A stretch of DNA of 64,000 nucleotides, taken from Acidimicrobiia bacterium. Lineage in GTDB: Bacteria; Actinomycetota; Acidimicrobiia; IMCC26256; JAENVU01. Positions 56,008 to 64,000 of the stretch are shown here, piece after piece; position 1 is the first letter of the stretch, and every line of letters begins with the position of its first letter. The notes beneath the pieces were generated by a model that had not been told where the DNA came from, did not search any database, and saw only the letters and a list, made by a program, of their open reading frames with translations. The stretch covers positions 7,290 to 71,289 of the forward strand of contig JBKJIQ010000047.1 of NCBI GenBank assembly GCA_046598395.1, in the 5' to 3' direction. The position numbers and the translations under genes were made by a program.

Positions 56008-56879
56008 GGCTCAATGTCGGCGCGGGTGCGCAACGACCGGCCCAACGCCACCGATACTGCAGTCACCCCAATCGCGCCGAGCGCGGAAACACCGGTCATC
56101 GTCGCAGCGGCATCCACCCGGCCCGCGTCGTCGGTGACGACAGGGATACCCACGCGCACGCCGAGCGTGAACGGATCGCGACCCTGCGCGACGAACGCGG
56201 CGCGTAGCACTTCGATCCCCGTGGCGATCTCGGAGACCGTCGGTCCCAGTGGCAACCACCCGTCGCCCAGTTGGGAGATACGCGCCACCATCGGCTCGGT
56301 CAACTGGCCGCCGTACCAAACCGGGACTCGAGCCTGCGCGGGACGCGGCTCACTCCAGATGTCGGAAAAAGAAATCGTGGGAGATGCAAACGAGACTGGC
56401 GGCGCCGTCTCCCACAACGCTCGACACGCGCGAACCGCATCGTCCATGCGCGCGGTGCGACCAAGGAACTCCATGCCCGGCTCCACGAACTCTTCACGCT
56501 GCCAACCGGTCCCGATGCCGAGATCGAGTCGACCGCGGGATAGGACATCCAGCGTGGCAACCGTCTTGGCCAACAACAGCACCGGACGAAGCGGTGCGAT
56601 GAGCACACCCGTTCCGAGTCGCACTCGAGATGTCGCCCCGGCGATCGCGGCGAGCGCAGTGAGTGGCTCCAGCCACGGTTCCTCAGCCGGGTACGGAAAC
56701 TTGGCACCGTACGGATAGCGATCGAGGCGCGATCCGATCGCAACATGATCGGGAAAGACCAACTGGTCGACGCCAAGGTCGTCCGCCATGCGCGCGATAT
56801 CGACCACCGCGCCCAGATCGTCGCCGAACAAGCGAGCAAGACCAGAGATCGTGACCGACAGTGCTATCCCTTCGGACAT
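55962..56879 (-). CDS. LLM-class F420-dependent oxidoreductase
   Basis: FPDHV, WLEPLTALAAIA, RLGTGVL, LSRGRLDLGIGTGWQREEF. Confidence 0.9.
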   Translation of the reverse strand: MSEGIALSVTISGLARLFGDDLGAVVDIARMADDLGVDQLVFPDHVAIGSRLDRYPYGAKFPYPAEEPWLEPLTALAAIAGATSRVRLGTGVLIAPLRPVLLLAKTVATLDVLSRGRLDLGIGTGWQREEFVEPGMEFLGRTARMDDAVRACRALWETAPPVSFASPTISFSDIWSEPRPAQARVPVWYGGQLTEPMVARISQLGDGWLPLGPTVSEIATGIEVLRAAFVAQGRDPFTLGVRVGIPVVTDDAGRVDAAATMTGVSALGAIGVTAVSVALGRSLRTRADIEPYLAELVAAIRSSVV

Positions 56880-57949
56880 GGGATCTCCGTTTCACCTTGG
56901 AGCCGGGCCGCGAGCCACAGCAACGATTGTTTGAACGCCGCGGACCACACGTCGAAGGTGTGCTCGCCGCCTGCGATCTCAACTGCGCACGTCGTGATGC
57001 CCGCTGCACGCGTGACGGGTACCAACTCCCGTTGCGCGGCGAGAGGCCCGGCGTCATCGGTCCCCACCTCGAACCATGCGCCCATGCCGGTCAACCGAGT
57101 CCGTTCGAGGATGGTGAGCGGTTCGTGCGCTGTGAACGCCGTGTCGTCGCCACCGAACAAGTTCGCCACGGTGTTACCCACCGAGTTGTCGTCGCCCGAT
57201 CGGGGCCCGAGTAACCCGCCGTAGTCCAGGAAGGTCTGGAACACATCGGGGTGGCGAATCGACAGCATCAGACCACACATCCCTCCTTCCGACAGTCCGC
57301 CCACCGCCCAAGCCTTCGCGTCGGTGGGCAACGAGAACCGTTTCGAGACGAACGCGGGAACATCGCGAGTGAGATAATTTTCCACGGCCCCGACACACTC
57401 GGTATCGGCGGTCAACGATCCATTGTTGTCCGCCATCACGAGAACGGGGGTCTGTCCCTCGTGCCGGGCGGCATAGGCGTCACTGTTGACGTCGGCGTCA
57501 CCGCCATGCGTCCAATCCTCCGGTGTACCTGGCGTTCCGGCCAGTAACACTACGACGCCGAGGGCCGGGCGGGGCGAGGCGAACCACGCCGGCGGGAGAT
57601 ACACCTGTGCGTCCCGCGGTTCGAATCCGGGGCTACTCGACGGAATCGGAATCTGGATGACCTTGCCACGAGCCGGGACGCCGCGTTGATCTCTCACCGA
57701 CGCCACCGAGGCCGCGTCTTGCGCGCGTTGACCGAGCAGTTCTTGCCACGTAGGAATGTAGTCATAATGACGGTTCACCCAGCCCGCCGTGTTCACTGCG
57801 AGCAACAGCACGACCGCGATCGCGCCGACGATCTCACCGAGCCGACCACGCCGCCGGCCGAATATCACGATCAATCCCGTCACCACCAGCGTGAAGACTC
57901 CGATCGCAGCGAGAAACGGCACGCTGACAATTGAATCGTCGGCGACCAT
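56864..57949 (-). CDS. Membrane-anchored esterase (PF00756/antigen-85-like alpha/beta hydrolase)
   Basis: Two N-terminal TMs, VYLPP, GGLSEGG nucleophile, GTDD and GGEH triad residues; ATG 7 nt after TAACTT. Confidence 0.85.
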   Translation of the reverse strand: MVADDSIVSVPFLAAIGVFTLVVTGLIVIFGRRRGRLGEIVGAIAVVLLLAVNTAGWVNRHYDYIPTWQELLGQRAQDAASVASVRDQRGVPARGKVIQIPIPSSSPGFEPRDAQVYLPPAWFASPRPALGVVVLLAGTPGTPEDWTHGGDADVNSDAYAARHEGQTPVLVMADNNGSLTADTECVGAVENYLTRDVPAFVSKRFSLPTDAKAWAVGGLSEGGMCGLMLSIRHPDVFQTFLDYGGLLGPRSGDDNSVGNTVANLFGGDDTAFTAHEPLTILERTRLTGMGAWFEVGTDDAGPLAAQRELVPVTRAAGITTCAVEIAGGEHTFDVWSAAFKQSLLWLAARLQGETEIPCPKG

Positions 57950-58061
57950 CATTGGGAAGTTACTGGCCCACGACAACGACGGCGGGGACACCGCGACTCA
58001 GGCCGGTCTTCCCGGCCGGACATCCAAACGCCCGGGTGGGCCAGCGAGTTGACTATTCACC

Positions 58062-58952
58062 GTGTCTTGGGTCGCGGTGCTGCTTGCGTTGGGCGCGGCC
58101 GCAATTTTTTCGGTGGGTGCGGTCGCCCAACAGCAAGAAGCCTCGAACCTCGGCGAGACGGGCGCGGGATTCATTGGCGGCTTGATGCGCAGTCCGCGGT
58201 GGTGGGCCGCCACGATCGGCGACGGCGTGGGTTACCTCCTGCAAGCGGCTGCACTCGCCGTTGGATCCATCCTCGTGGTTCAGCCGCTCCTCATCATGGC
58301 GCTCGTGTTCGCCCTCCCCCTCGCGGCGCGATGGAACGCCCGGCCGATCAGCCGCGGTGCCGTGGCCTGGGCCGGTGCGATCGCCCTCGCGCTCGCCACG
58401 TTCTTGGTGGTGGGTGATCCGGGTGGCGGGGTCGACGTTGCCACCATCAAGCAGTGGCTACCGTCGATCATCGGGTGTTCCATCCTCACCGCGGCCGGTT
58501 TCGTAATTGCCCTCACCGGCCGAGCACGCCTCCGCGCCATCGGACTTGCGATCGTTGCCGGCACAATGTTCGGATTGGCCTCTGCACTGACGAAATCGAT
58601 GATGTATCTCCTCGGCGCCGACATTGGCCACGCCTTGACCTCGTGGGAGACCTACGCCGTCGTCGCGACTGGTGGGATCGGGTTGTTGTGCCAACAGCTG
58701 GCATTCCAAGCTGGTTCACTCGAGATTTCGTTCCCCGCCGCGATCGTGTTGGACCCGGTGGTGAGCGTGGCCGTCGGCCTGGCCGCGCTCGACGAGCAAG
58801 TGCACGCGTCCGGCATCGAATGGCTGCTCATCGGTGGGAGCGCGATCGTCATGATCATCGGGACCATCACACTCGCACGCGTCGGCGCACCCACGCTGCC
58901 CATACAAACGGGGGCAGACAGAGCACGATCGTCGCCCCTGCCAGCAGACTGA
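58062..58952 (+). CDS. DMT superfamily membrane transporter
   Basis: About 9-10 TMs; AVAQQ, PRWWAA, VQPL and LCQQLAFQAG motifs. Confidence 0.8.
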   Translation: MSWVAVLLALGAAAIFSVGAVAQQQEASNLGETGAGFIGGLMRSPRWWAATIGDGVGYLLQAAALAVGSILVVQPLLIMALVFALPLAARWNARPISRGAVAWAGAIALALATFLVVGDPGGGVDVATIKQWLPSIIGCSILTAAGFVIALTGRARLRAIGLAIVAGTMFGLASALTKSMMYLLGADIGHALTSWETYAVVATGGIGLLCQQLAFQAGSLEISFPAAIVLDPVVSVAVGLAALDEQVHASGIEWLLIGGSAIVMIIGTITLARVGAPTLPIQTGADRARSSPLPAD

Positions 58953-60309
58953 CGTACACGACCGGACTTCCCGTCTTGAGCTGATCCGGTGGGATGAAGC
59001 CCAACAGCAGTGACCCGGTGCACGCAAGAACGCCGACGATCCCGACACACCACATGCCGACTCCTCCGCCGGGAACTCGATAGGGACGCACGCGGTCCGG
59101 TTGGCTGAACCGCAATCGGATGAACGCTGCGAACACCAGCGCGTACATCACCGCGACGATCTGGGCCGTGACCGCGGAGAGCATCCAGTAGCTCGTCGAG
59201 GCATTGGGGACGAACAGAAACAGCAGCGAAAAGATCGTGCCCCCCATCCCTTGCGTGATCAACAACCCCACTGGCACACCGCGTGCGTTCATCCTGCCAA
59301 AGGACGCCGGGGCCCGACCATCGTGCGCGACCGCGGCCATCCCCTTGGCCGGGCCGAGGATCCATGGACTGAGATGGGCCAGACCGCCGAGACCTACGAG
59401 CAACGCAAGTGGGTGCAGCAACCAGGAAATCCCGAGCCGTGAGAGCGCGCGTTGGAACAGTTCCATCGTTCCCGACACGAGGCTCAGCTCATGGGCAGGC
59501 ACAATGAAGGCGAGGAACAACGATCCCAGCACCGAGAACACCACGATCACGATCACCGAGAGTGCGATCGAGCGGGGAACGGTCCGCCCCGGGTCAACGG
59601 TGTCATTTGCATGGAACCCTGCCATCTCCATGCCCGTGAAGAGCAGGATGATCCCCCCGAGAAACGCCAGGTTTCCGAACGAGATGTCGGGGACCAGCGC
59701 GTGACCCGAGAATGGAATCTCGGATCGCTGGCCCGATACCAACCATGCGATTCCGAGACCGACGACGAGCACCGCCGGAACGATCGAGCCGACCACAGTT
59801 CCGATCCCTCCAAACCAGGCGGAGGCAGCAGCGCCGCGCAGGTTGATCAATGTGGCCGCCCAGAACATCACCAGCATCACGGTGACGAGATACAGCTTGT
59901 TCGTGGCGAGGTCGGGATCAACCACGTACGCGAGGGATGCCGCCATGAACGACAGGACCGTTGGGAACCAAGGGATGTTCTCGGCATAGTCGCACCACAC
60001 GGCCAGAAACCCGGTGCGACCGCCGAAGGCTTCCCGTACCCATGCGTACACACCGCCCTCTTCCGGCCACGCGGTTCCAAGCTCCGAGGCCACCATCGAA
60101 ATCGGCACCAGGAAGACGAGAATCGCGAGTGCGAACAACACCAGCATCGACCAGCCGTAGACCGCCATCACCGGAAGGTTCCGTGCGCTCACGATCGCGG
60201 CCACATTGATCGCCATGAGCGCTAACACACCAAGGCTGCGGCGGCCACCTTCGCCAGTCTCCGACGATGTGCCGGACGCAGGGATCGCGCTCCCACTCGA
60301 AGCAATCAT
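58867..60309 (-). CDS. APC-superfamily amino acid antiporter (GadC-like)
   Basis: AINVAAIVSARNLP, ELGTAWPEEGGVYAWV, FTGMEMAG and RPYRVPGG; about 12 TMs. Confidence 0.85.
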   Translation of the reverse strand: MIASSGSAIPASGTSSETGEGGRRSLGVLALMAINVAAIVSARNLPVMAVYGWSMLVLFALAILVFLVPISMVASELGTAWPEEGGVYAWVREAFGGRTGFLAVWCDYAENIPWFPTVLSFMAASLAYVVDPDLATNKLYLVTVMLVMFWAATLINLRGAAASAWFGGIGTVVGSIVPAVLVVGLGIAWLVSGQRSEIPFSGHALVPDISFGNLAFLGGIILLFTGMEMAGFHANDTVDPGRTVPRSIALSVIVIVVFSVLGSLFLAFIVPAHELSLVSGTMELFQRALSRLGISWLLHPLALLVGLGGLAHLSPWILGPAKGMAAVAHDGRAPASFGRMNARGVPVGLLITQGMGGTIFSLLFLFVPNASTSYWMLSAVTAQIVAVMYALVFAAFIRLRFSQPDRVRPYRVPGGGVGMWCVGIVGVLACTGSLLLGFIPPDQLKTGSPVVYVSLLAGATIVLCLPPFVWAAWVRRRVRV

Positions 60310-60761
60310 TTGGCGCCGATTTGATCAAGGGCCAGTGTGAGGCGTTCCATGATCGCGTCGTCACGGCCTGCCGCTGCCTCGAGGGTGAACTGCCCGAAGG
60401 TCCAGACCACGCCGTCGGCATGGGGCCGTTGCTGAGACTCCAAGTTTCTCGCCGCCGCATCGCGATCGTCTCTGTTCGCGAACTCGTCGACGATCAATGT
60501 CACCACTTCGTCGTGGCAATCGATGGCGACGAACAGGATTCGGGTCGACATGGCTTGGTTGGCGAAACCGTTCGAGTTCCTAGAGGTTGAACACACCTCC
60601 AGGCCCCCCTGTTCGACGGCCGCTGTGAGCTCACCGATCGTGTGGTGATCGAACTCGTCATGTCCGGGCCCGCAGGCCACCATGCCGACGGCAGCAATCA
60701 CCACCAGGACCGACGCTCCGCGCAAATGCCTCCAACCCGGACGCGCGGGTCGTCGGGTCAC
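60306..60761 (-). CDS. Hypothetical lipoprotein
   Basis: Hydrophobic signal and lipobox MVAC; GTGA and ATGA overlaps with both neighbours. Confidence 0.7.
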   Translation of the reverse strand: MTRRPARPGWRHLRGASVLVVIAAVGMVACGPGHDEFDHHTIGELTAAVEQGGLEVCSTSRNSNGFANQAMSTRILFVAIDCHDEVVTLIVDEFANRDDRDAAARNLESQQRPHADGVVWTFGQFTLEAAAGRDDAIMERLTLALDQIGAK

Positions 60762-63700
60762 GCCACGTGTGCGGCTGAGTCGGCAACCTGGTCAGGGGCC
60801 GGAACACCCCCCACCGGGGTCGGGACGAACAGCGCGCGGCCAAAGGGCAGCACCAAGAAACCTTCCGCTCCCGCGTACAAGGCGGCAACACGCGGGAGAT
60901 CGGAGGCGTCGGCGTAGACGATGCTGCGCGGCAGCCAGAGCGGATCGAACTTCTCGTTGAACGTCCGCAACGACTCGATCTGGAAGTACGGATTCGCTTT
61001 GCGAATCCCCCATGCCGCGACCCGCTGCACCATGCCTTGCTGAATGTCAGGATCAAGGAGCCGACCCCAGGCCGCAAAATTCATCGAGAGTCGCCGCACG
61101 CCCCGCTCGGCCAAGGCGGTTGCCGCCTTCACGATCAGGAACTCGGTGATGCCGTTCGGCGCATCAGGGTCGTGCCGCATGAGATCTAGCGTGTAGCCGC
61201 GGTCGCGCCCGTAGGCGGGGACGATGCGCAGAAACCCGCTGGGCGCGCCCGCTTGGTCATAGGCGATGCACAACAGAAACTCGGGGTTCTCACCCTTGAT
61301 GTCTTGAGAGAGTGACATCGTGAAGCCGCGCTCGGGGTTCGTACCTCGCCACCGTGCGCTGATCGCGTTCAACGCCGCGACCGTGGTCTTCGGCGCGCTC
61401 GACTCCGTGATCATCTGGAACCGTTGGGTCTTCTCCAATCGGCGGGTCGCTTGGTGAATGCTCTTTGCTCCTGCTCCTTGCTGAATGGCATCGCAGCGCA
61501 CGATCGCCTCATCACCGAGATACACGTGCCGCAAACCTCTCGACGAGTAGAGCGGAAGATCGCCTTCGCGCGTCGCGAGGAACGCGGGCTTCCATGCCCG
61601 TTCACGGCAGAACGCTAGGAACTCGTCCACCACGAGCGCGATCGATTCCGGCCGTCCGATCGGGTCGCCGGCGCCGAGCCCATGGCCGGCCATATAGGTG
61701 TAGGCAATCATCGCCTCGCCGTCGGATGCAAAGAAGAAGCTCTTGTCGCTACGCAACGCAAAGTATGCGAGCGTGTCCCATCCATAGTCGTGGACCAGGC
61801 GGGTGGCGTGATCCCAATCCTCCTGGCGATGAGGGTCGCGTTGTACCAACGGCCGGAACACCACCACGACCAGGCCGATCAACCCGAAGATCCCGACGGC
61901 GAGCAGCGCGGCGGGATAGAAGTCGTGAAAGAACCGCGCCTGATAGGTGTACGGACCACTGACTCCTACCAACCCGAGCGTCACCGTTTCGATTGCACCA
62001 CCGAGCGACACCGACGGCGATATCCGTCCACGATCGAGGAACAGCGCCAACAGACCGAAGCCGTAGACCACGAGGACGTAGATCGGAAACAAACGAACGA
62101 GCCGCCACACCGATGGTGGATCCGACGGCGCCCGGAATCGATCTCGATTGGCCACCAAGAGCACGAGGAGAATCACGGAATAGGCAGCCGCAACCACATG
62201 CGGACCCTTCACTACATGCAACACAGAGCTGACCGCTGCTACCGCGGTCGCAAGTTGCCACGCGCGGTGTTTCCCCGAGCGCAGTTGGTCGGCCAAGAAC
62301 AAGAGCCCGAAGCCGGCCAACACGATCACCACTCGTCCCGAGACGCGCAGCTCCAACGGCAGGAAGCTGTCGCGGAGCGGCTCGATTTGGCGGTGGAACC
62401 ACGGCACCAGCGCGGCGGCGGAGAGCAATCCCACAACCGCAACGAGCATGGTGATCACCCGGACCGGAACCCGGGACTGGCTGAGGGGCGGCGCCGGTGC
62501 GCTCGTCAGTGCCGTGACGGTGGCGGTGAGTTCCGGCGGGGCGTCGCCCTGAGAAGAAGCTGCAGTTTCGCCGCCTGATCCGAGACCTCCCATGCCCGGT
62601 TCCGGACGCAACGTGGGGAACAGAATCACTTCGCGGATCGACGACGTTCCGGTGATCAGCATCACCAATCGGTCGACTCCAATGCCGAGTCCGCCGGTAG
62701 GAGGCATGCCGTATTCGAGTGCCCGAACGTAGTCGAGGTCGACATCTCCGGCCTCGGGATCACCTGCTCGCTTGTGGATCGCCTCGGCTTCGAACCGCTC
62801 GAGCTGATCGACCGGGTCGTTCAACTCGCTGTAGGCGTTCGCAAGTTCGTGACGGTTCACTACCAGCTCGAAACGCTCGGTCAACGTCGGGTCGTCACGA
62901 TGCGCCCGCGCGAGCGGCGACACCTCACGCGGATGATCGAGCACGAACGTCGGTTGCACCAACTTGTCCTCGACGTACTCGTCATAGACCTCGTTCGTGA
63001 GCTTGCCGGGCCCCCAGCTGGCTTCGTACGCAATCCCCAGGCCGTCGAGCACCGCGCGCGCGGCATCGAGTGTCATCGCGGGGTTGATGTCGACGCCCAC
63101 GTGTTCCTTGATCAGCTCGACCATGGTGGCGCGCCGGAACGGTGGTGACAGGTCGATCGTCTCCTCGCCCACCGTGACCTGCAGGTCCGGAACGATCGCG
63201 CGCGCACTCTCCACCACCAGACCTTCGACGAGGTCCATCATGTCGTAATAGTCCCCATACGCCTGGTACGCCTCGAGCATCGTGAACTCAGGGATGTGGG
63301 TGGTGTCGATGCCTTCATTACGGAACACGCGTCCGATTTCGAAGACCCGGTCGAGCCCACCCACGATGAGGCGCTTGAGGTGGAGTTCCAGTGCGATGCG
63401 CAAGTACATGTCTTGGCCAAGCGCGTTGAAGTGCGTGATGAATGGTCGGGCGGTCGCTCCGCCCTGGATCGATTGCAGGACAGGTCCTTCCACCTCGCGA
63501 AACCCGCGTTCCATGAGGTGGCGCCGCAACGCCGCGATGATCTCGATCCGGGCAACGGCAATTCGATGCGCGTCTTCGTTGACCACCAGATCCACGTATC
63601 GCTGCCGGTACCGCGTGTCGGTGTCGGTCAGGCCGTGCCATTTGTTCGGAAGCGGACGAACAGCTTTCGCGAGGAGCTCGAAGGACTCCACATTCACGGA

Positions 63701-64000
63701 GAGCTCGCCTCGGCGCGTGGTCATCACGGAACCGGTAACGCCCACCCAGTCGCCCCGATCGAGATGATCGAACTCGTCGTGCTTGGCCTCGCCGATCACC
63801 TTCTGGCTGACGAACAGCTGGATCTGCCCGTCGCGGTCCTGCAGCGTTGCGAAACTCAGCTTCCCTTGCCGACGGAGCAACAGCAACCGGCCGGCAATGC
63901 AGACGTTGGTTTCGGTGGTCGTACCCGGTTCCAGGTCACCGAACTCGGCGCGCAGTCCGCCCGCGGTCGCAGTGAAGTCGAACCGCACCGGATAGGGCTC
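60758..64000 (-). CDS. Class II lysyl-tRNA synthetase fused N-terminally to an MprF-type TM + DUF2156 aminoacyl transferase (5' end beyond window)
   Basis: OB domain (AGR...GKLSF..LQD), YRQRYVDL, motif 2 FRNEG, motif 3 GLGIGVDRL and REVILFP; linker; about 6 TMs; DTLAYFALRSDK, GDPIG, ERGFTM, LDLMR and SLRTFNEKF. Confidence 0.93.
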   Translation of the reverse strand, partial: EPYPVRFDFTATAGGLRAEFGDLEPGTTTETNVCIAGRLLLLRRQGKLSFATLQDRDGQIQLFVSQKVIGEAKHDEFDHLDRGDWVGVTGSVMTTRRGELSVNVESFELLAKAVRPLPNKWHGLTDTDTRYRQRYVDLVVNEDAHRIAVARIEIIAALRRHLMERGFREVEGPVLQSIQGGATARPFITHFNALGQDMYLRIALELHLKRLIVGGLDRVFEIGRVFRNEGIDTTHIPEFTMLEAYQAYGDYYDMMDLVEGLVVESARAIVPDLQVTVGEETIDLSPPFRRATMVELIKEHVGVDINPAMTLDAARAVLDGLGIAYEASWGPGKLTNEVYDEYVEDKLVQPTFVLDHPREVSPLARAHRDDPTLTERFELVVNRHELANAYSELNDPVDQLERFEAEAIHKRAGDPEAGDVDLDYVRALEYGMPPTGGLGIGVDRLVMLITGTSSIREVILFPTLRPEPGMGGLGSGGETAASSQGDAPPELTATVTALTSAPAPPLSQSRVPVRVITMLVAVVGLLSAAALVPWFHRQIEPLRDSFLPLELRVSGRVVIVLAGFGLLFLADQLRSGKHRAWQLATAVAAVSSVLHVVKGPHVVAAAYSVILLVLLVANRDRFRAPSDPPSVWRLVRLFPIYVLVVYGFGLLALFLDRGRISPSVSLGGAIETVTLGLVGVSGPYTYQARFFHDFYPAALLAVGIFGLIGLVVVVFRPLVQRDPHRQEDWDHATRLVHDYGWDTLAYFALRSDKSFFFASDGEAMIAYTYMAGHGLGAGDPIGRPESIALVVDEFLAFCRERAWKPAFLATREGDLPLYSSRGLRHVYLGDEAIVRCDAIQQGAGAKSIHQATRRLEKTQRFQMITESSAPKTTVAALNAISARWRGTNPERGFTMSLSQDIKGENPEFLLCIAYDQAGAPSGFLRIVPAYGRDRGYTLDLMRHDPDAPNGITEFLIVKAATALAERGVRRLSMNFAAWGRLLDPDIQQGMVQRVAAWGIRKANPYFQIESLRTFNEKFDPLWLPRSIVYADASDLPRVAALYAGAEGFLVLPFGRALFVPTPVGGVPAPDQVADSAAHVA

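Follow-up and report, generated by a model that had tools for sequence, protein, structure and literature searches.

Can a lysyl-tRNA synthetase (LysRS) that is built into the membrane, and covalently joined to a domain for lipid aminoacylation, be the only LysRS of a cell? This question is raised by a gene at one end of a 64,000-nucleotide stretch from the genome of a soil bacterium of the Acidimicrobiia (GenBank assembly GCA_046598395.1, contig JBKJIQ010000047.1, positions 7,290 to 71,289; the whole stretch is called the window below). The gene encodes, in one frame, a class II LysRS, a linker, six transmembrane (TM) helices and a DUF2156 domain. An initial annotation, made from the sequence alone, had read it as a LysRS-first fusion to an MprF-like lipid aminoacyl transferase, with the reverse of the domain order seen in mycobacterial LysX. 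The fusion is the only LysRS of its genome, and this is a real functional difference from LysX. The overall explanation put forward here, with a probability of roughly 0.68, is that of a bifunctional integral-membrane protein, at once sole LysRS and lysyl-lipid transferase, which arose from a translationally coupled gene pair and belongs to a conserved gene module.

Domain architecture of the fusion

Residues are numbered either in the part of the protein that is encoded in the window or in the full protein, the first 77 residues of which lie outside the window. The following features make up the gene.

60758..64000, minus strand: LysRS-linker-six-TM-DUF2156 gene, window part; open frame with the stop codon at 60758-60760
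63671..63904, minus strand: OB-fold anticodon-binding domain of LysRS (Pfam PF01336, tRNA_anti-codon, 3.7e-16; window-part residues 33-110)
62609..63622, minus strand: class II LysRS catalytic core (PF00152, tRNA-synt_2, 2e-86; window-part residues 127-464)
62471..62599, minus strand: linker of about 43 residues, rich in Gly/Ser/Ala/Pro and predicted to be disordered (full-protein residues 545-587)
61841..62470, minus strand: six-helix membrane domain (hydropathy and AlphaFold2)
60914..61801, minus strand: DUF2156 / LPG_synthase_C domain, a double GNAT fold (PF09924, 2e-60; window-part residues 734-1029)

A domain scan thus gives tRNA_anti-codon, tRNA-synt_2 and LPG_synthase_C in the order first proposed, and the boundaries given earlier (LysRS from 62600, TM helices at 61855-62470) are right to within a few codons.

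The LysRS half spans residues 55-545 of the full protein. Motif 2 (FRNEGIDTTHIPEFTMLE) and motif 3 (GLGIGVDR) of its core are intact, and in an alignment of 36 homologues R304-N-E-G, H312, P-E-F-T and G513-G-x-G-x-D-R are invariant. The NCBIfam equivalog model for bacterial LysRS (lysS_bact, TIGR00499) scores 591-608 bits against a cut-off of 427.6, which places the domain within that equivalog. Comparison with the Geobacillus stearothermophilus enzyme (PDB 3a74) gives an E-value of 2e-152. When the whole structural model was compared with the PDB by Foldseek, only LysRS structures were returned; this search is silent on the membrane half.

The transferase half is equally recognisable. PF09924 is matched with 205 bits (gathering threshold 27.5) over profile positions 2-298 of 298, i.e. 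as a full-length member of the family, and the domain occupies residues 811-1106 of the full protein. The DLMR and LRxFxxKF motifs are kept. Its closest solved structure is the lysyl-phosphatidylglycerol (Lys-PG) synthase of Bacillus licheniformis (4v36, 2e-31), followed by an alanyl-phosphatidylglycerol synthase (4v34, 7e-24), and it aligns over its full length with both. Identity of this half to any characterised enzyme is 30-35% at most. Both halves of the fusion are conserved over the 36 homologues, with a mean column identity of 64%.

Between the two halves lies the linker, estimated earlier at about 45 residues and now counted at about 43. Its columns are variable among the homologues, and the AlphaFold2 model has a predicted local distance difference test (pLDDT) score below 50 over residues 538-572. 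The TM helices follow at residues 588-606, 626-651, 655-675, 679-694, 708-732 and 766-797 of the full protein; the model (mean pLDDT 71) adds two short helices to these six between residues 588 and 797. Counts of Lys and Arg in the loops favour a topology with both termini inside, as is required by two cytoplasmic catalytic domains. Invariant residues also occur in the TM domain.

The TM and DUF2156 part aligns only with residues 371-873 of Pseudomonas aeruginosa MprF (the TM part with 371-545), which corresponds roughly to TM9-14 plus the synthase (PMC13534887). Judged from this alignment, the membrane domain corresponds by homology to the C-terminal, synthase-proximal TM helices of MprF and not to its flippase half; the absence of an N-terminal flippase region, noted at the outset, agrees with an alignment that begins at residue 371. 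One expected Pfam match did not appear: tRNA-synt_2_TM (PF16995) gives no match at normal thresholds and only a faint signal (14 bits, E 0.04). This model was built on the membrane region of canonical LysX, where it scores 282 bits.

Extent and integrity of the reading frame

As first described, the frame runs uninterrupted on the minus strand from 64000 down to the stop at 60758-60760. On the genome contig (G000:C23) it continues for 231 nucleotides beyond the window end, to an ATG at window-equivalent position 64231, and the full protein of 1157 residues is identical to a database cluster (P0002). The initial annotation was correct that the window clips the N-terminus; the missing part, taken there to be only the extreme end, amounts to 77 residues. 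About 54 of these form a disordered acidic extension, and the remainder is the first LysRS helix. The extension (window-equivalent 64070-64231; L001 2968-3129) is of low complexity, has a pLDDT below 35 and is unconserved in homologues.

The linker region was also followed in independent material. Contigs from four public soil or sediment sequencing runs (three studies) span positions 62200-62900 with substitutions only and no indels; a frameshift in the linker, which the initial annotation had named as a possible refutation, is thus absent from them. Eight further genomes of the genus likewise carry the LysRS and DUF2156 domains in a single open frame, 1149-1436 residues long. In one more assembly of the genus (G003; locus L031, G003:C5:404600-408800), the gene is divided over three frames, with 73-87% identity to the window protein in each; this break probably reflects indel errors of that assembly rather than a true pseudogene.

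The only LysRS of the genome

The assembly is a metagenome-assembled genome (MAG) of 50 contigs, estimated to be 98.7% complete. Its one TIGR00499 match above cut-off is the fusion gene, and the only other class II match is the aspartyl-tRNA synthetase (AspRS). A profile search of the genome found no class I LysRS above cut-off. Whole-genome tblastn with eight diverse LysRS queries, including the second-copy LysRS type of other fusion carriers, detected the fusion locus and AspRS and no second LysRS. Genes for tRNA-Lys(UUU) and tRNA-Lys(CUU) are located elsewhere in the genome. The search for another lysS that had been recommended at the outset therefore reveals what the initial annotation overlooked, namely that the fusion is the sole LysRS and so must serve translation.

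The same holds for relatives. A single LysRS gene is present in each of the 39 related genomes that gave a match (in G007 it is split over two contigs), and in two near-closed assemblies, of four (G016) and eight contigs (G018), the lone LysRS is the fused frame. In a maximum-likelihood tree of 70 LysRS domains, that of the fusion sits on a short branch amid housekeeping LysRS of Acidimicrobiia.

Comparison with known systems

The closest counterpart is LysX (Mycobacterium tuberculosis Rv1640c, Corynebacterium pseudotuberculosis; NF002821), which likewise combines a class II LysRS, about six TM helices and DUF2156 in one polypeptide. The window protein scores 821 bits against the LysX model (cut-off 742), but in two swapped stretches: the order in LysX is TM-DUF2156-LysRS, whereas here LysRS comes first and DUF2156 last. 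The order of the Pfam matches agrees, so that the reversal claimed initially is borne out. Identity to LysX is 42-46% in LysRS and 30-35% in TM-DUF2156, and both halves fall outside the LysX clade. LysX makes a lysyl-lipid, either lysyl-diacylglycerol (Lys-DAG) or Lys-PG, and needs its own LysRS domain for this (PMC2713425, PMC10580965); a lysyl-lipid is also what the window protein is presumed to produce. It coexists with an essential LysS (PMC4721953), whereas the window fusion is the sole LysRS.

MprF-type Lys-PG synthases (Staphylococcus aureus, B. licheniformis 4V36, and P. aeruginosa, the latter known from cryo-electron microscopy) share the DUF2156 synthase and the adjoining TM helices. 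The fusion differs from them in lacking the N-terminal flippase half of eight TM helices and in having its own aminoacyl-tRNA synthetase (aaRS). Accordingly, the bifunctional MprF model (NF033480) gives 200 bits against a cut-off of 600, over profile positions 319-832 only, and the protein is not a member of that family.

The order of domains is that of ErdS, the fungal ergosteryl-aspartate synthase, in which an AspRS lies N-terminal to DUF2156. In ErdS, the second domain draws on the aminoacyl-tRNA made by the first (PMC7334510, PMC13219428); the tRNA does not leave the aaRS domain, and its acceptor arm moves across to the DUF2156 site (PMC13219428). Unlike the window fusion, ErdS contains AspRS, has no TM helices between its halves, uses a sterol as acceptor, is eukaryotic, and is a paralogue beside a housekeeping AspRS.

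A further parallel is the AlaDAGS and PesT pair of Corynebacterium glutamicum, a short-TM actinobacterial homologue of aminoacyl-phosphatidylglycerol synthases (aaPGSs) with a 'putative esterase' partner (PMC6103681); a PF00756 esterase is also found in the module of the window. AlaDAGS, in contrast to the fusion, is specific for alanine and is not fused to an aaRS, and homology of the window esterase to PesT is putative.

Housekeeping aaRSs that are anchored in the membrane and still serve translation have a precedent in the CAAD-domain aaRSs of cyanobacteria. Their anchor is a small inserted domain without a transferase, and different aaRSs are involved.

Origin of the fusion

In the LysRS-domain tree, the two kinds of fusion lie apart. 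The domains of canonical LysX make up a single clade (Shimodaira-Hasegawa-like approximate likelihood-ratio test, SH-aLRT, 100), sister to housekeeping LysRS of the same Mycobacteriales-type families, and those of LysRS-first proteins are all placed in another clade, joined with housekeeping LysRS of Acidimicrobiia. A tree of 56 TM-DUF2156 sequences has three well-separated groups: LysRS-first proteins together with adjacent split genes (support 100, stem length 1.42), canonical LysX (SH-aLRT 94-100), and unlinked MprF-like genes. The two half-trees are broadly congruent. Since canonical LysX stands apart from the LysRS-first family in both, the two fusions are independent events, as had been supposed.

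Separate genes for the two halves in close relatives had been named as a finding that would speak against the fusion. Such genes do exist, in more distant relatives, and they explain its origin rather than refute it. In G028 (same order) and in G145 and G072 (same class), all outside the family of the window organism, a separate gene on the same strand, about 600 residues in length, comes directly after lysS, and its product is 48-52% identical to the TM-DUF2156 half of the fusion. At the junction, stop and start overlap in G028 (TAGTG), and a gap of 55 nucleotides is found in G145 and G072. Unlinked MprF-like genes of the same order are 33-35% identical to this half. The fusion would thus stem from a translationally coupled pair of lysS and TM-DUF2156 genes that is still unfused in other Acidimicrobiia.

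The TM-DUF2156 tree calls for two or more fusion or fission events, and other states occur as well. G019, together with G001 and G013 of the genus of the window organism, has a plain LysRS without the DUF2156 module; the LysRS of the fusion is 76-78% identical to those of G019 and G001. One database protein (P0130) has the LysX order, with a C-terminal LysRS, but its halves are 47-50% identical to the LysRS-first family versus 30-41% to canonical LysX. Fused, split, flipped and module-less states are evidently so plastic that domain order alone carries little weight.

Several other arrangements were seen in passing. P0129 is a TM-DUF2156 protein of the same type with an N-terminal RDD domain. 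Free-standing DUF2156 frames of 335-367 residues, apparently without TM helices, are present on G013:C4, G017:C140, G030:C2, G001:C15, G012:C671 and G005:C18. Actinomycetes of genus g65, with genomes of 7-10 Mb, encode a stand-alone protein of about 590 residues without a LysRS domain (e.g. G079:C11:249097-250773), which scores about 660 bits to the N-terminal TM-DUF2156 half of the LysX model; some such genomes also have a full LysX. Finally, in G412 (C11:16705-18201) LysRS lies within a frame of 1054 residues in a genome without any DUF2156 match. This could be another C- or N-terminal extension, or merely an open GC-rich frame.

Distribution and naming

The best 120 matches in a collection of 5.8 billion proteins are all collinear with the fusion, over about 99% of the query and with 53-84% identity. 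They come from Acidimicrobiia MAGs, Pseudonocardia, Actinomycetospora, Geodermatophilus, Blastococcus, Modestobacter, Frankiaceae and Jatrophihabitantaceae. Overall, the LysRS-first order was found in Acidimicrobiia, Pseudonocardiales, Geodermatophilaceae, Frankiaceae and, as loci, in Solirubrobacterales. A scan of genome contigs with a peptide pattern returned mostly lysS of Firmicutes, and L056, L057 and L060 alone were useful. In an even sample of 401 Actinomycetota species, the LysRS-first fusion occurs in four genomes and canonical LysX in 15, so the order is not rare.

The initial annotation had allowed for the order proving common and already described. Common it is; a description was not found in the literature searched, though earlier work on aaPGSs may mention it. 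TM-GNAT-LysRS is the only order described in PMC2713425, PMC10580965, PMC6103681 and PMC9437257. The LysRS-first fusion is therefore widespread in databases with no paper found that describes it, and named entries at NCBI read plainly 'lysine--tRNA ligase'.

Gene neighbourhood

The fusion heads a run of genes that overlap by 4 nucleotides; a small protein and a permease come next. The neighbouring genes are the following.

60306..60761, minus strand: small exported, lipoprotein-like protein of 151 residues with a lipobox (VAC); its start overlaps the fusion stop by 4 nucleotides
58867..60309, minus strand: APC-family amino-acid permease, GadC-like (PF13520, 3e-57); 4-nucleotide overlap with the preceding gene
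58062..58952, plus strand: DMT-family transporter (NF038012, 1e-48), convergent with the operon
56864..57991, minus strand: PF00756 'putative esterase' with two N-terminal TM helices (PF00756, 5e-11)

The same gene set lies beside LysRS-first genes in distant lineages, namely in L056 (an Actinomycetota MAG), L140 (Actinomycetospora), L141 and L142. In L140, the DMT transporter, a gene of unknown kind, the fusion, the small protein, the permease and the esterase follow one another on one strand with 4-nucleotide overlaps. Homologues of the small protein (137-168 residues) take the equivalent position in all four loci. The permease, with copies directly downstream of the fusions, is 68-74% identical across loci and classes, which exceeds the conservation of the fusion itself; its score against TIGR03813 (415 bits) is under the cut-off of 650.

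In L140 the esterase belongs to the operon of the fusion, and in L141 it lies close by; a database protein in which TM-DUF2156 is fused to a C-terminal PF00756 esterase (P0169) links both activities. For actinobacterial AlaDAGS the known partner is the esterase PesT, and other aaPGSs have known hydrolases as well (PMC6103681). By analogy, the esterase is a candidate lysyl-lipid hydrolase or transferase, possibly PesT-like.

The DMT gene adjoins the fusion in 10 of the 12 loci examined. In G001 (L143, G001:C1) and G013 (L144, G013:C8), the plain LysRS ends at residue 545 and the same convergent DMT gene is directly adjacent; TM-DUF2156, the small protein and the permease are all missing, so that presence of the module varies within the genus at one locus. 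The link of the DMT gene may accordingly be to the locus, and perhaps not to the lipid module. The transporter had been considered as the missing flippase; on account of these two genomes this candidate was downgraded.

Proposed mode of action

What was observed, namely the architecture with its intact motifs, the lone LysRS copy, the phylogeny and the synteny, underlies the following model, in which the lipid transferase activity, the nature of its acceptor, the division of Lys-tRNA between translation and lipid, and the functions of the neighbours are all putative. The N-terminal class II LysRS, on the cytoplasmic side, would charge tRNA-Lys at the inner face of the membrane and supply Lys-tRNA(Lys) to the ribosome; part of it would pass to EF-Tu. 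The flexible linker of about 43 residues would tether LysRS to the six-helix domain and the cytoplasmic double-GNAT transferase. The remaining Lys-tRNA would be passed on to the adjacent DUF2156 site, perhaps through a swing of the acceptor arm like that in ErdS (PMC13219428). Its lysine would there be esterified onto a glycerolipid of the membrane (lysyl-PG or lysyl-DAG), which would render the membrane more cationic. The module of small exported protein, permease, DMT transporter and esterase plausibly turns over the lysyl-lipid and recovers lysine. The initial annotation saw a channelling enzyme; obligatory channelling of Lys-tRNA, itself putative, cannot be all that happens if the fusion also feeds the ribosome.

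A more far-reaching version, which is tentative and goes further than we would commit to, has the sole membrane LysRS share Lys-tRNA between ribosome and membrane with the neighbouring genes as a closed lysine-lipid cycle. Such a cycle would run from synthesis of lysyl-lipid in the inner leaflet, through export and cleavage or transfer by an outward-facing PF00756 esterase, to re-import of lysine by the APC permease. In this version, the charge of the membrane would be coupled directly to lysine supply and to translation capacity.

Several points weigh against the bifunctional protein proposed here. Five genomes with the same architecture (G298, G364, G439, G440 and G441) retain a second, free LysRS, and given these lineages the fusion may be best suited as a dedicated enzyme; G396, like the genus of the window organism, has no such second copy. 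The assembly is a MAG, and for this one genome the missing 1.3% might in principle hold a second lysS. In M. tuberculosis and Mycobacterium smegmatis, LysS is essential; LysX is no substitute for it, nor LysS for the LysRS domain of LysX (PMC4721953, PMC2713425). As LysX of M. tuberculosis cannot replace LysS, feeding of translation by a tethered LysRS is not a given. The plain LysRS of G001 and G013 indicates that the lipid module is dispensable. The AlphaFold2 model, with a predicted template modelling score (pTM) of 0.48, has no confident arrangement between the domains.

Alternative explanations

The alternative that survives best, and is itself unlikely, is that the polypeptide is split after synthesis, or that its C-terminal half is also made from an internal start, yielding a free, soluble LysRS and a separate MprF-like membrane enzyme without tethering or channelling, in function equivalent to the unfused operon of relatives. 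In its favour, the linker is a long disordered stretch of low conservation, relatives manage with unfused neighbouring genes, LysRS can persist where the module has been lost, and the fused or split state has changed at least twice on the tree. The fused frame has nevertheless been retained over several orders (at least 37 sequences in the tree), which points to selection for keeping the two halves joined; the linker columns of the 36-homologue alignment show neither a conserved cleavage motif nor an internal start, and LysX and ErdS both work as intact fusions (PMC2713425, PMC7334510). A covalently linked, bifunctional enzyme is hence preferred.

It is very unlikely that the DUF2156 acceptor is something other than a membrane glycerolipid, such as a cell-wall precursor, a glycolipid or a small amine, with the TM helices as a mere anchor. 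DUF2156 acceptors do vary, being sterols in ErdS (PMC7334510) and glucosyl-diacylglycerol in the MprF of Streptococcus agalactiae (PMC11630815); the family has just 30-35% identity to any characterised enzyme, and a soluble product would be within reach of the permease and DMT transporter linked to the fusion. A mere anchor fits poorly, however, with a TM domain that is homologous to the membrane part abutting the synthase in MprF and that contains invariant residues, and the membrane-anchored esterase partner fits the theme of aminoacyl-lipid hydrolases and PesT (PMC6103681). A glycerolipid thus remains the preferred acceptor.

That the LysRS domain is devoted to lipid lysylation as in LysX, with translation served by another LysRS that has escaped assembly and searches, is highly improbable. 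This explanation draws on the five LysRS-first genomes with a second LysRS, on the 50 contigs of the MAG, and on the genomes with canonical LysX: all 15 carry that fusion, and a separate standalone LysRS is among the matches listed for them, in a scan of the phylum with NF002821 that scored two candidates per genome and hence is no full census. Against it stand the lone LysRS in all 39 related genomes with a match, including the assemblies of four and eight contigs, the negative tblastn and class I searches, and the short branch among housekeeping enzymes; the fusion as sole LysRS is the reading retained.

That the long frame is an assembly or frameshift artefact merging two genes can be regarded as refuted, for although the region is broken into three frames in G003, the linker is without indels in the four public runs and the frame is continuous in eight other genomes of the genus and in more than 100 database proteins.

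Biological significance

LysX is the textbook case of an aaRS paralogue reserved for lipid aminoacylation, with a LysRS that is unable to support translation. Here, the same chemistry would be placed on a housekeeping enzyme, in the opposite domain order and by an independent fusion.

The fusion also offers a way to find out whether a synthetase bound to the membrane can supply the ribosome, and a route to the role of the short six-helix MprF domain without the flippase half. With fused, split, order-flipped and module-less states in one family, nature has provided an experiment on tethering in aminoacyl-tRNA channelling, and cultured carriers (Actinomycetospora, Geodermatophilus, Modestobacter and Pseudonocardia) make the family testable. 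In databases, thousands of entries named only 'lysine--tRNA ligase' conceal a putative lipid-modifying domain.

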